Shown here piece after piece: positions 18,927 through 48,545 of a stretch of DNA of 64,000 nt. Under the pieces are notes generated by a model, which saw only the letters and a program-made list of their open reading frames with translations, was not told where the DNA came from and did not search any database. Every line of letters starts with the position of its first letter. Positions within the stretch are counted from its first letter, which is position 1. A program made the translations under genes and the position numbers. Source of the DNA: an uncultured Mycoplasmatota bacterium (GTDB lineage Bacteria > Bacillota_I > Bacilli_A > RF39 > UBA660); assembly GCA_948466735.1 (NCBI GenBank), contig CAOKBR010000001.1, forward strand, positions 3,266-67,265, written 5' to 3'.

Positions 18927-20246
18927 ATGATTAAACTATCACAGGAACAATTGTTACTTTTTGCACAAAAACATAAAATAGCAGAGCCAAGTAAGAAAAA
19001 AAATAGAGAACAATTACTATTAAATTTTGCAAAGACAATTAGAAGTATGGATAAAGAAACTTATGAAAAAGCAAAATATATTGAATTTAATGGTGAAAGA
19101 TTTACTAAAGACGAAGCAAAGATTTTAGTTGTGCTTGTAAAAAACATTAAAGAATATAATGACTTTTGTGAAGGAGAATATTTATCTAATACCAAAAGAA
19201 AACATAATGGCACTTTACGAAAACTTTTTCATGAAGCGTTATATTATAAAGATATCAATGACTTTGTATTCAATTATCCATTATTAACACAGAAAATGGA
19301 AATACTAGAAAAATTAGAAACCTTTAGAACATATTATGCTACACCAGTAGAAAAAGAACAATATGATGAATGGAAAAGAAAAGTGGAACCATGTTATCGA
19401 AAAACAAGAGCATTCATTGGATTCGAAGCACTAGATGCTTACTTAAAGAAAGATGAAGATCCTGATTTATTATTTCAATTTATGATTCAATATCAATGTA
19501 CTTCGATTATGACCGTTAAAGAATATATTAGTCAGTATTTACCATTTTGTTCTACCACGATACAACAACAATATCTAATGACTAAAGAAGAAATTCCTAT
19601 TCTTGGAATGTATGATGAACTATTAAAAAAATGGTATGTATTCTTACAACAAATAGATATTAAGAAAACACCAAATTATAAGGCACTATTTTTATTTAAC
19701 AACAATATTAAAAGTACGACTTTGGACAAAACGATGAAATACGCTAAAAATTACCGAGTAAGCATTTATGAAAAATGTATGAAGTTAATTGCTTTATATG
19801 ATCAAATTGTAATTAAACAAGCAAGAATTGAAACTGATACTCTTGCTTGCTACTATAACTTGGATCAATCTTATTTGTTTCCGTTATCATCTTTTACCAT
19901 CCTAGACTTTTTTGCACTAACATCTTTTTCACCAGAGTATATCAAACAAGAAGTTGGCTTTGATTTTTCTAATAGTAGAGCATATGATAACTTAGAAAAC
20001 GCTTTGTTTCCTAAAAAACAAGCGGCCATAAAAAAAGAAAAGTTAGCTACAACACCAGTAAAATTGGGAAGTAGAAGCGCTAAACGTATTAACAAAATAG
20101 AGAAAGATGCCATTATTAATTATATTGAACAAATGGTTTTTCCAAGAGAATTAACACTGGATTTATATCAGGTTATCATTAATGAATTATTAGCCCATCC
20201 ACAATATTTAACATCTTACCAAAAGAAGACTAAAGTCAAAAAATAA
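18927..20246 (+). CDS. hypothetical protein, paralog B of the duplicated family
   Basis: 439 aa, colinear with 16459..17817 over its full length. Confidence 0.5.
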   Translation: MIKLSQEQLLLFAQKHKIAEPSKKKNREQLLLNFAKTIRSMDKETYEKAKYIEFNGERFTKDEAKILVVLVKNIKEYNDFCEGEYLSNTKRKHNGTLRKLFHEALYYKDINDFVFNYPLLTQKMEILEKLETFRTYYATPVEKEQYDEWKRKVEPCYRKTRAFIGFEALDAYLKKDEDPDLLFQFMIQYQCTSIMTVKEYISQYLPFCSTTIQQQYLMTKEEIPILGMYDELLKKWYVFLQQIDIKKTPNYKALFLFNNNIKSTTLDKTMKYAKNYRVSIYEKCMKLIALYDQIVIKQARIETDTLACYYNLDQSYLFPLSSFTILDFFALTSFSPEYIKQEVGFDFSNSRAYDNLENALFPKKQAAIKKEKLATTPVKLGSRSAKRINKIEKDAIINYIEQMVFPRELTLDLYQVIINELLAHPQYLTSYQKKTKVKK

Positions 20247-20261
20247 ATATTTTTTACTACC

Positions 20262-20591
20262 ATGAATAAACTAGAATTATTAAGATTAAAAAAAATCTTT
20301 CGTCCTAAAGACAAAGATTGGTTGGGTTTTAAAATATCAAGCAGGAATTTTTTAACTTATCATCATTTATTTAAACAAGTATATGGCACATGGGAAGATT
20401 TTGATCCAAAATATCAATTACATAATGGAGCATTACTAACTAAAAATGCCCATAGATATATTCACTTATTAGAAAGTATTGACCGCGAAAAATTTTTAGC
20501 ACTTACCGAATTGATGCGTCAATTAAATAATTCCATGACGCCACCTAATGATGAGTATTACGAAAAAGTAAAAAAGATTAAAAATCGTTAA
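20262..20591 (+). CDS. hypothetical protein
   Basis: 109-aa basic protein, no recognised family. Confidence 0.35.
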   Translation: MNKLELLRLKKIFRPKDKDWLGFKISSRNFLTYHHLFKQVYGTWEDFDPKYQLHNGALLTKNAHRYIHLLESIDREKFLALTELMRQLNNSMTPPNDEYYEKVKKIKNR

Positions 20592-21282: not shown

Positions 21283-22026
21283 TTATTTGCTAAGAAAACT
21301 TCTAATTTCTTTTACACACTCATCAAAATTATCCATATAACAAAAGTGTCCAGCGTTAGCCCACGTTTTAAGGGTTGAATTTTTAATTTGTTCTTTCATG
21401 ATAATAGCATCATCTATTGGAGTAGAAGTATCTAATTCTCCCCATAATAATAACACATCTGATGATATATCCTTTAAATAATAACGTAAGTCTTCATTGA
21501 CCACTTGGACAAAAGTTTTTCTTAATGTTTTGTCTAGTTGTTGATAATCACTTGAGCCATAAAGTTTTCTTAAAACTTTTAAATATTTTTCTTGATTTTT
21601 TCGTCTTTTAAAATGCATGACGATAAATTTAAATAGTTTATATTCTAAAATTCTTTTTTTCTCTTTCCAAGTTTTTATTGGTTTGATTCCTGCTGCATCA
21701 ATTAAAATGATTTTAGAAATTTCTTGATGATAATATCCTGATAATAAAATAGATATTCTTCCGCCAAAAGAGTGACCAATGAGAATTGGATTTTTTATAT
21801 TTTCTTTTTCTAACCACTCTAAAATCGTTATTGCGTAATCGTAAATGGTTAAATCTCTAGTAGGAAAAGGACAATGATGAAAACCTGGATAGTCTATAAC
21901 ATAAATAATGTAGTCCTTTTCTAATTCGTTAATTAGTGGAAGCAAGGTGTCAAATACTTCTCCCCAGCCAGGTAGTAAGACAATCACTGATCCGTGGTTT
22001 CCATAAACGTGGTAGGTAATCGTCAT
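21283..22026 (-). CDS. alpha/beta-hydrolase fold esterase/lipase
   Basis: 'GHSFGGRISILL' nucleophile elbow (GHSxGG). Start refined to the Met preceded by AAGGAG: 'MTITYHVYGNHGSVIVLLPGWGE'. The upstream 60 codons of the track ORF look non-coding. Confidence 0.7.
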   Translation of the reverse strand: MTITYHVYGNHGSVIVLLPGWGEVFDTLLPLINELEKDYIIYVIDYPGFHHCPFPTRDLTIYDYAITILEWLEKENIKNPILIGHSFGGRISILLSGYYHQEISKIILIDAAGIKPIKTWKEKKRILEYKLFKFIVMHFKRRKNQEKYLKVLRKLYGSSDYQQLDKTLRKTFVQVVNEDLRYYLKDISSDVLLLWGELDTSTPIDDAIIMKEQIKNSTLKTWANAGHFCYMDNFDECVKEIRSFLSK

Positions 22027-22147
22027 TTTTTCTCCTTGATACATTAAATCACCTAATACTAGTGTATGAGAAAAAAGAAGAGATTGTGCTTGTATCATGA
22101 AAAAAATTTCTTCAAGAGAGAAAATCATAAAATGATTACAAAAAAAA

Positions 22148-22176
22148 TTGATAATATTTAAAAAACATGGTATACT
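22148..22176 (+). promoter_or_regulatory. strong sigma-A promoter with extended -10 (TTGATA-17-TGgTATACT)
   Basis: TTGATA at 22148-22153, a 17-nt spacer, TG at 22168-22169, TATACT at 22171-22176. Confidence 0.5.
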
Positions 22177-22185
22177 AAAAATGTC

Positions 22186-22370
22186 TAGAAGATACGTGTA
22201 ATACATCCAATAGTATAAAACCGACTAAGTTAACGATACGGGAGCATCGAGCAATCGCTGGTGTTGAATACCCATACATTTCTATGGGGATCCTAAAGGC
22301 GATGTAGATGCACCCACCTGTACAAATGCAGGTTTTATCGTTAGGATGACGGTCTTCTGGATTTTTTTGT
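22186..22370 (+). ncRNA. GC-richer structured leader or small RNA upstream of the tcdA-like gene; class not identified
   Basis: A roughly 185-nt segment with much higher GC than its surroundings. Local hairpin cccata-catttc-tatggg. 5' 'ctagaaga' can pair with 3' 'tcttctgg', followed by atttttttgtttt. The next gene's RBS follows directly. Confidence 0.3.
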
Positions 22371-22388
22371 TTTGAAGGAAGTGAAAAA

Positions 22389-23078
22389 ATGGACTTTTTA
22401 GAACGATTAAGTTTATTAATGGATAAAAATAAAATTGATGTTTTGAATAAATCAACAGTGATGGTTCTTGGTATTGGTGGAGTAGGGTCTTATTGTGTAG
22501 AAGCCTTAGTAAGAAGCGGTATTGGTAAAATCATTTTAATTGATCCAGATAGTATAGATATTAGTAATATTAATCGCCAATTAATTGCGTTACATTCTAC
22601 CATTGGACGAAAAAAAGTAGAAGTGATGAGAGATAGAATTTTAGATATTTCTCCTAACTGTGAAGTGGTAATTTATGATTTTTTCTATAACGATGAAAAT
22701 GCCACCATTCCTTTTTTAGAACAAAAGATTGATTTTGTTGTTGATGCTTGTGATAGCATCAAAAGTAAAGAAAGACTTATTTTACAGTGCCAGTCAAGAG
22801 ATGTTTCCTTTATTGTTAGTACAGGCACAGGAAATAGAATGGATCCTTCTTGTTTAGAAATTACTACCTTAGAAAAAACATCTAATGATCCTTTATCAAG
22901 AATTTTAAGAAAATGGATGAAAGAAAATCACATCAATAAAAAAATTCCTGTTTTGTGGTCTAGTGAAGTACCAATTAAAGTAAAGGATGGTATCATTGGC
23001 TCAAATAGTTTTGTTCCAGCAAGCGCAGGATTGATGATTGCTAGTTATGTTATACAACAACTCATTAAGAAAATTTGA
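22389..23078 (+). CDS. tcdA: ThiF/MoeB-family E1-like protein, probably the tRNA threonylcarbamoyladenosine dehydratase TcdA
   Basis: 'VLGIGGVGSYCVEALVRSGIGKIILIDPDSIDISNINRQL' Rossmann/ThiF motif; 229 aa, no Cys-rich C-terminus. Confidence 0.65.
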   Translation: MDFLERLSLLMDKNKIDVLNKSTVMVLGIGGVGSYCVEALVRSGIGKIILIDPDSIDISNINRQLIALHSTIGRKKVEVMRDRILDISPNCEVVIYDFFYNDENATIPFLEQKIDFVVDACDSIKSKERLILQCQSRDVSFIVSTGTGNRMDPSCLEITTLEKTSNDPLSRILRKWMKENHINKKIPVLWSSEVPIKVKDGIIGSNSFVPASAGLMIASYVIQQLIKKI

Positions 23079-47426: not shown

Positions 47427-48545
47427 TTATCCATTTCTATCAACGAATTTTTTGAATTTACCAATTTCATTGTCTTCCAACTCAGTCTTTTCTAATTGCT
47501 CGAATAACTTCTTTTGATCGCGTGATAACTTCTTAGGCGTAATCACTTTCATGATAAAGTACATATCTCCTTTATGATGATCAGATACATTGTTAACACC
47601 TTTTCCTTTAATTCGTTGACGATCCCCATAGTCTGTTCCTGATGGAATAGTAAGTTTAACATTTCCATATAACGTTGGTACTTCTTTTTTACATCCAAGA
47701 ACTGCTTCAGTAATGGTTAGAGGAACTTCTAGGTAAATATCATCCCCTTCACGAACAAAGTAATCATGAGTTGCTACTTGAAACTCTAAATATAAGTCCC
47801 CATTACTTCCTCCGTTAGTTCCTGCTTCTCCTTTTCCTGCTACACGAAGACGATCGTTAGTTGCAACTCCAGCTGGAATGGTTACTGAAATCGTTTTATG
47901 GGCGCGAACTTTACCTTTTCCCTTACAATTAGAACAAGCTCGCTCATAAGATTTACCCTTTCCTTTACACTTTGGACAAGTTGTTTTCGTTAAGAAAGAT
48001 CCTAAGATGGTGTGTTGCTCACTAGTAATGGTACCTGATCCGTGACACTCATCACAAGTTTTCTCTCCAAAACCACCTTTTCCGTCACATTCCTTACAGT
48101 TTTCAGTAACATCTAATTCAATATCACGATTTGTTCCAAAGATAGCTTCCTCAAAGGATAATTTGATGCGCATTAAGGTATCTGCTCCACGACTAGCGCG
48201 ACTTGCTCTAGAACCACCGCCGAAACCAAATCCTGCTCCACCGAAGATATTATCAAAGATGTCTCCAAAATCAAATCCTGATGCATCAAATCCACCGAAG
48301 CCTCCAGCACCACCTGATGCTTGATCAAACGCTGCATGACCAAATTGATCATATTGACGGCGTTTAGCATCATCCGATAACACCGCGTACGCTTCTTGTA
48401 TTTCTTTAAATTTTTCTTCAGAACCAGCTTCTTTATTAATATCAGGGTGATATTGTTTTGCTAATTTTCTAAAAGCAGATTTGATTTCATCACTTGATGC
48501 ACTCTTAGAGACACCTAAGACTTCATAATAATCTTTTTTTCCCAT
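47427..48545 (-). CDS. dnaJ: molecular chaperone DnaJ
   Basis: J-domain 'YHPDINKE', a G/F-rich linker, and four CxxCxGxG zinc-finger repeats. Confidence 0.95.

Follow-up and report, generated by a model that had tools for sequence, protein, structure and literature searches.

A structured intergenic segment upstream of a tcdA-like gene in an uncultured member of the Bacilli is very probably a 6S-1-type 6S RNA gene

Introduction

The locus considered here raises a simple question, namely, whether the structured segment of about 185 nt that lies between a divergent hydrolase gene and a TcdA-like gene is a leader of the gene that follows it, or an RNA gene in its own right. The original prediction, made by reading the sequence, left the choice between a riboswitch, an attenuator and a small RNA, and proposed an Rfam scan and a covariation analysis of homologous regions as checks, the absence of any family match or conserved structure being named as a reason to give the element up. 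We examined the segment within a stretch of DNA of 64 kb, referred to as the window, whose coordinates are used throughout.

6S RNA, the class to which our analysis leads, is a well-known small RNA of most bacteria that mimics an open promoter and thereby sequesters RNA polymerase. The family is defined by a rod of about 200 nt, in which closing and apical stems flank a central, largely open bubble. As an open-promoter mimic the RNA binds the housekeeping holoenzyme, and it serves as the template for short pRNAs, which leads to its refolding and to the release of the enzyme.

Results

The segment matches the 6S RNA family

The whole window was scanned with Rfam 15 at gathering thresholds, and a single match above its gathering score was obtained, RF00013 (6S/SsrS), at 22179-22367 on the plus strand, with 71.7 bits against a gathering score of 46.4 and an E-value of 3.6e-12. 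This match runs from end to end, covering model positions 1-187 of 187. The statement that the segment could not be matched by eye to 6S motifs was wrong, as was its framing as an unclassified leader; the proposed scan gave the opposite of an empty result. In a permissive local scan (22050-22450, E≤10), 6S was again the only significant match, at an E-value of 2.3e-14, and no riboswitch or leader family matched even at this cut-off. The other matches of the permissive scan, snoZ40, OmrA-B, S774 and NsiR1, reached 14-21 bits against gathering scores of 39-50, and these identities were dismissed as sub-threshold chance matches. A tRNA and tmRNA scan of the window gave no match.

Promoter, borders and composition of the 6S gene

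The features of the locus are as follows.

21283-22026, minus strand: divergent alpha/beta-hydrolase gene, assigned with Pfam; a neighbour, not part of the RNA
22148-22176, plus strand: sigma-A/sigma-70-type housekeeping promoter of the 6S gene (10/12 match, extended -10 TG)
22179-22367, plus strand: very probable 6S RNA (SsrS) gene of the 6S-1/bsrA type (RF00013, fold z-score, covariation)
22349-22368, plus strand: 3' strand of the closing stem (22349-22362) with a T7 tract (22362-22368), from sequence, fold and the T-tracts of homologues
22374-22381 and 22389-23078, plus strand: RBS GAAGGAAG and ORF of a ThiF-family gene, TcdA/YrvM-like (PF00899, 120 bits)

A near-consensus extended -10 promoter had been claimed between the divergent hydrolase and the tcdA-like genes, and it is indeed found there. 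Its -35 is TTGATA (22148-22153) and its -10 is TATACT (22171-22176), with a spacer of 17 nt and a TG at 22168-22169, the extended form being TGgTATACT (22168-22176). Only some 6-7 nt separate the -10 from the first paired base of the closing stem. Among homologues, all of the 90 distinct upstream regions have a -10 hexamer with 5-6 matches out of 6 at the corresponding site, equally spaced from the closing stem, and 56 of them also carry the TG extension. A start of the transcript around 22181-22183 is probable, with its end in the T-tract.

At the other border, the 3' strand of the closing stem and the T7 tract likely form the 3' end or terminator of the RNA, and a T-tract of at least four residues follows the closing stem at the equivalent position in 113 of 120 homologues. 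A simple terminator scan flagged only the internal 3'-CB hairpin, and not the closing stem with its T-tract, because the 'loop' at this site is the whole RNA. Promoter and stem with T-tract are thus both present, and both are conserved among homologues.

The GC content had been described as far above the local background. It is clearly raised, being 0.407 for 22179-22367 and 0.43 for the core at 22183-22361, compared with 0.303 for the window and 0.29 for each of the 1-kb flanks, and it ranks in the top 1.35% among all windows of 189 nt; 'far above' was somewhat generous. The highest GC peak of the window, up to 0.476, is found elsewhere, around 48121-48400, within a DnaJ gene (47427-48545, minus strand). 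This peak was rejected as an RNA element, as it lies inside that gene and is unrelated to 6S.

The predicted fold is the rod of the 6S family

The existence of a structured segment of about 185 nt was borne out by its folding energy. The MFE of the 6S segment is -62.7 kcal/mol, compared with -41.3 ± 4.0 kcal/mol in 200 dinucleotide shuffles (z = -5.35), and none of the 200 shuffles folds as well. The architecture is that of a rod, in which a central bubble separates the closing stem from an interrupted apical stem, as in the 6S family. Its parts are listed below.

22183-22197, plus strand: 5' strand of the closing (terminal) stem, pairing with 22349-22362 (MFE; helix 1)
22212-22225, plus strand: predicted pRNA template, placed by position and by analogy with Bacillus subtilis 6S-1; overlaps the 5' strand of helix P2
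22215-22222 (AUAAAACC) with 22331-22338 (GGUUUUAU), plus strand: helix P2, in the fold with the 5' bubble held open
22223-22239, plus strand: 5' side of the central bubble (5'-CB), containing UAACGAUA (22231-22238)
22240-22315, plus strand: internal (apical) stem with small loops, capped by CCCAUA/UAUGGG at 22271-22288 (MFE; helices 2-6)
22316-22333, plus strand: 3' side of the central bubble, with the 3'-CB hairpin ACCUGUA/UGCAGGU (helix 7, 95.1% paired)

Two elements of this fold had been noticed by eye, and both are where they were said to be. The hairpin read as cccata...tatggg is the apical hairpin, in which CCCAUA (22271-22276) pairs with UAUGGG (22283-22288). The pairing of the two ends corresponds to GUCUAGAAGAU (22183-22193) with GUCUUCUGGAU (22352-22362), followed by the U-tract and, right after it, by the RBS. 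In addition, a conserved ACCCACCUG block is found on the 3' bubble side, within 22316-22333.

Homologues and covariation support the fold

Homologues were collected in two ways. First, 34 loci were fetched from species-representative genomes by means of the downstream protein, and 20 of them were scanned with Rfam. Second, 120 further 6S copies were obtained from a metagenome scan with the conserved 5'-bubble motif. For covariation we used 65 sequences of less than 93% identity, aligned by sequence only, and the Rfam model and this alignment agree. Distant Bacillaceae and Gemella copies, aligned with the window by MAFFT, were dropped for covariation, their 5' ends being misaligned, and the metagenome copies, which are closer to the window, took their place.

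RNAalifold recovered from the 65 homologues the closing stem, the long interrupted apical stem and the small 3'-bubble hairpin, amounting to 30 pairs, 18 of which show compensatory double changes. Paired cells make up 97.7%, compared with 30-51% when the partners are slid by 1-3 columns; double-change cells number 235, compared with 60 ± 10 in column shuffles; and the observed covariation score was reached by none of 500 shuffles. By helix, the closing stem (helix 1) is 95.6% paired with changes on both sides in four of six pairs, and the apical stem (helices 2-6) is 97-100% paired with changes on both sides in 12 of 18. The blocks AAAACCGACTAA and GATAnGGGA constitute the metagenome search pattern, and their invariance, which is by construction, was not taken as evidence; covariation was read only from helices outside these blocks. 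Helix P2 is 99.5% paired but invariant and without covariation, its 5' strand being fixed by the search pattern. The covariation check that had been proposed for this element has accordingly returned a conserved structure.

These data leave a negligible probability to the notion that the segment is a GC-rich intergenic palindrome formed by chance, or the remnant of a 6S gene that has decayed and lost its function. It can be said in favour of this notion that expression of the window 6S is something we only infer. Nevertheless, the failure of any shuffle to fold as well, the promoter and T-tract conserved in about 90-113 homologues, and a sequence that is identical in six independent assemblies, those with an identical TcdA-like protein, all stand against it, and the widespread compensatory changes effectively refute it.

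It counts against the 6S assignment that the gene of the window, at 72 bits, scores well below the 6S genes of Bacillaceae (about 110 bits), and that some relatives with tcdA gave no 6S upstream of it. Elsewhere in the sample, a syntenic 6S copy at L004:2793-2968 scores 34 bits, under the gathering score of 46.4. In nine tcdA-bearing relatives no 6S was found within 3 kb upstream of tcdA; one of them, L001, has only 14 nt upstream of the match, and the other eight (L007, L008, L009, L011, L012, L013, L015 and L018) gave none in this range even at E≤1. For these eight, either the gene has moved or the Rfam model misses it. Two further loci, L002 and L003, are labelled 'uncultured Muribaculaceae' (Bacteroidota) and have a 6S-tcdA locus of the Bacilli type, whose TcdA is 55% identical to the one in the window; this points to faulty binning or labelling of the two MAGs. 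Other regulatory RNAs were encountered further upstream in the relatives, unrelated to 6S, namely, a T-box leader (128.5 bits, L004:1089-1322) and a SAM riboswitch (84.6 bits, L010:134-245).

The genomic neighbourhood is that of 6S-1

The gene downstream of the RNA begins with an ATG at 22389, 21 nt past the T-tract. The best NCBIfam match of its ThiF protein is TcdA, at 151.9 bits; we refer to it as TcdA-like because this score is below the equivalog cut-off of 304. The name yrvM appears with tcdA in the ct6A literature (PMC5389704), and adjacency to tcdA/yrvM is given as the classical position of 6S-1 (bsrA) in 2002 work, as cited in later literature. The window agrees with such a location, the aspS - yrvM/tcdA neighbourhood, in that the TcdA-like gene is directly downstream. 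aspS itself is not adjacent, and RNase HII and the divergent hydrolase are found upstream of the 6S gene instead. The order in one relative, L005, is aspS, an alpha/beta-hydrolase on the minus strand, 6S, a 277-aa ORF and tcdA, which is the B. subtilis neighbourhood with two insertions; the divergent hydrolase is common to this locus and the window. By its position, the gene is the orthologue of B. subtilis 6S-1 (bsrA) in an uncultured, low-GC member of the Bacilli of gut-type metagenomes.

Some observations concern the neighbouring genes. Read from 22206, the longest ORF of the hydrolase (21283-22206, minus strand) would extend over the 6S promoter; on sister contigs a 281-aa hydrolase is given by gene callers, and the Pfam domain together with a strong AGGAG RBS fits a start at 22026 (247 aa). 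Two adjacent plus-strand ORFs, 18927-20246 (439 aa) and 20262-20591 (109 aa), lie upstream of RNase HII; they have no Pfam match at E≤0.01, and are likewise called as genes without Pfam matches in the independent contigs L155-L160.

The association with tcdA extends to other genomes. Nine of the 20 loci scanned have a 6S RNA above the gathering score that precedes the tcdA homologue and shares its strand. Among these nine are three Alkalihalobacterium species (109-112 bits), MAGs of Gemella and of Erysipelotrichaceae, one each, and several uncultured Bacilli. Among the 98 metagenome homologues with at least 600 nt of downstream sequence, 67 have a tcdA homologue on the same strand. It is directly adjacent to 6S, the arrangement of the window, in ten of these 67, and separated from it by one ORF of about 270 aa in the other 57. 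In the 31 remaining loci, several of which have too short a downstream sequence, no tcdA was seen within 1.5 kb. The intervening ORF is conserved in most close relatives, with about 265-285 aa in some 57 metagenome loci (for instance L035, L041 and L048) and at L005:2166-2999; it gave no match in Pfam, and the window lacks it.

This arrangement bears on whether the segment acts in cis, as a riboswitch, T-box-like element or attenuator controlling the transcription or translation of the TcdA-like gene. Such a leader would suit the window itself, where the element lies on the same strand just 21 nt from the gene, with a stem and T-tract next to the RBS, and where no separate promoter-like site was found for the TcdA-like gene. 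It would not suit the relatives: the RNA travels with its neighbourhood, and tcdA is mostly not the immediate downstream gene, with the ORF of about 270 aa in between in 57 of 67 homologues and others without tcdA in reach, which argues against a cis-regulatory leader. Neither does the RNA look like one, as it is a single rod with a central bubble and not an aptamer with an expression platform, and in none of the folds did an antiterminator compete with the closing stem. Together with the lack of any riboswitch or leader family at E≤10, in the same scan in which 6S reached 2.3e-14, this makes a cis-acting leader very improbable. Of the options that the original prediction had kept side by side, the small RNA stands, with its own promoter, its stem and T-tract and its RF00013 match, and the riboswitch and the attenuator do not. 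The segment is very probably a stand-alone RNA gene, real but of an ordinary and already-known kind.

As for the expression of tcdA, the promoter scan found no other plus-strand promoter-like site in 21900-22600. As no site of its own was detected and its start codon is just 21 nt away from the T-tract, read-through from the 6S promoter is the probable source of tcdA expression. A weak tcdA promoter may also be present inside the 6S gene, and a TATAAT-like sequence is found between 6S and the next ORF in some relatives. A stronger version, in which 6S and the TcdA-like gene are always transcribed as a single unit, with tcdA made only by read-through and the adjacency reflecting functional coupling, seems to us unlikely, though deserving of mention.

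Comparison with known 6S RNAs

The window RNA shares with B. subtilis 6S-1 (bsrA, originally BS190) the Rfam family and the rod architecture, a small 3'-bubble hairpin, a 5' bubble strand complementary to the strand 3' of P2, as a collapse helix would need, a predicted template C, about as far from the 5' end, opposite which a pRNA would start with GTP, and the neighbourhood next to yrvM/tcdA. It differs from it in four respects. First, its sequence is divergent, as reflected in 72 bits compared with about 110 bits for the Bacillaceae copies. Second, B. subtilis pre-6S-1 has a 5' leader of 11 nt that is removed by RNase J1, whereas the window has little room for such a leader because its -10 is so close to the first paired base. 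Third, aspS is not adjacent, RNase HII and the divergent hydrolase being upstream. Fourth, tcdA follows only 21 nt after the T-tract.

E. coli 6S (ssrS) belongs to the same family, and its promoter-mimic mechanism would be shared by the window RNA. In both cases a protein gene lies close behind the RNA gene, co-transcription being known for ygfA and predicted for the tcdA of the window. However, ygfA encodes a folate enzyme, and the gene of the window a ThiF protein resembling the tRNA ct6A dehydratase. Moreover, a 9-bp 3'-CB hairpin, which appears only once pRNA has been made, takes part in the release of E. coli 6S, whose pRNA starts with ATP; the features of the window RNA are of the B. subtilis type, not of the E. 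coli type.

B. subtilis 6S-2 (bsrB) and the 6S RNAs of lactic acid bacteria likewise have the family, the overall fold, a promoter of their own and a terminator-like 3' end in common with the window RNA. Their contexts are different from that of the window, as bsrB, whose pRNA starts with ATP, is located in yocI-yocJ, and the genes of lactic acid bacteria are flanked by rarA and uspA. We therefore weighed whether the RNA could be 6S-2-like or an otherwise divergent paralogue, able to bind polymerase but a poor template for pRNA, with a physiological role unlike that of 6S-1. The Rfam score is moderate, the free RNA is predicted to fold with a closed bubble, and our view is limited to 64 kb of the genome, so that a second 6S gene may be present elsewhere. 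On the other side, the neighbourhood is that of 6S-1/bsrA (aspS ... 6S ... yrvM/tcdA) and not the yocI-yocJ location of bsrB, and the predicted template start is a C, so that pRNA would be initiated with GTP, as B. subtilis RNA polymerase requires in order to make it efficiently. On balance, we regard a paralogue of this sort as distinctly unlikely, and the 6S-1 type is retained in what follows.

A proposed mechanism for the window RNA

In B. subtilis, the 6S-1 pRNA starts with GTP opposite C40, and the polymerase of this organism depends on GTP initiation to make pRNA efficiently. The free 6S-1 RNA contains the small 3'-bubble hairpin; once pRNA has been made, the distal 5' bubble strand pairs with the 3' strand of P2 in a 'central bubble collapse helix'.

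By analogy with this system, we infer holoenzyme sequestration and pRNA-driven release for the window RNA, as follows. The RNA would mimic an open promoter, bind in the active site of the housekeeping (sigma-A) holoenzyme and so damp transcription under nutrient scarcity. Once NTPs are back, the polymerase would use 6S as a template, starting with GTP opposite C22225 and producing a short pRNA, 5'-GUCGGUUUUAUAC..., which would unwind P2 (22215-22222/22331-22338). [quoted passage not shown]

The putative template C22225, part of an invariant ACCGAC block, is 43-45 nt away from the probable 5' end, the pRNA start having been placed by position and by the GTP rule and not by direct alignment to 6S-1. 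The predicted 14-mer pRNA, 5'-GUCGGUUUUAUACU, would form a duplex with a ΔG of -18.6 kcal/mol. As for the refolding, UAACGAUA (22231-22238) is able to pair with UAUCGUUA (22336-22343) in a helix of 8 bp that resembles the central bubble collapse helix. This collapse-like helix is 91.5% paired across homologues, and its pair 66-201 is found as AU in 35, GU in 17, UA in 5, UG in 2 and GC in 1. It is mutually exclusive with P2. The P2 form appears when the 5' bubble is held open, at -57.7 kcal/mol, and only the collapsed-bubble fold is left when the template (22212-22225) is masked. In these models, the two alternative conformations of the bubble and the switch on masking match the published 6S-1 model.

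The free RNA is predicted in the collapsed form, with the CBCH-like helix and the 3'-CB hairpin, at -62.7 kcal/mol; the P2 form is 5 kcal/mol less stable, and the P2 pair probabilities given by the energy model for the free RNA are below 0.01. This preference may simply be due to the limitations of energy models and to polymerase being absent, and it is no evidence against membership in the family.

Discussion

Every computable mark of a 6S RNA is found in this segment, that is, the model score, the architecture, the covariation, the promoter and 3' end, and a synteny of the 6S-1 type. Of a riboswitch or leader, the two marks that can be looked for, a family match and a steady downstream gene, are both missing. 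We conclude, with high confidence, that the segment of about 185 nt is a gene for 6S RNA (SsrS). It should be annotated as ssrS/6S RNA of the 6S-1 type, not as an unknown leader or riboswitch, and a standard Rfam annotation pass would assign this label.

Beyond the right annotation, the significance of the finding is small. It does indicate that coverage of the 6S family is marginal in this clade of uncultured gut Bacilli, where scores are near, and sometimes under, the Rfam threshold. In addition, the adjacency of 6S and tcdA persists over large evolutionary distances, and here almost no spacer (21 nt) is left between the two. If the two genes did form an obligatory unit, which we consider unlikely, this would parallel the unexplained linkage of ssrS and ygfA in proteobacteria, and it would mean that the global sequestration of RNA polymerase is coupled to the ct6A modification of tRNA, a coupling kept from Bacillus to a distant lineage.
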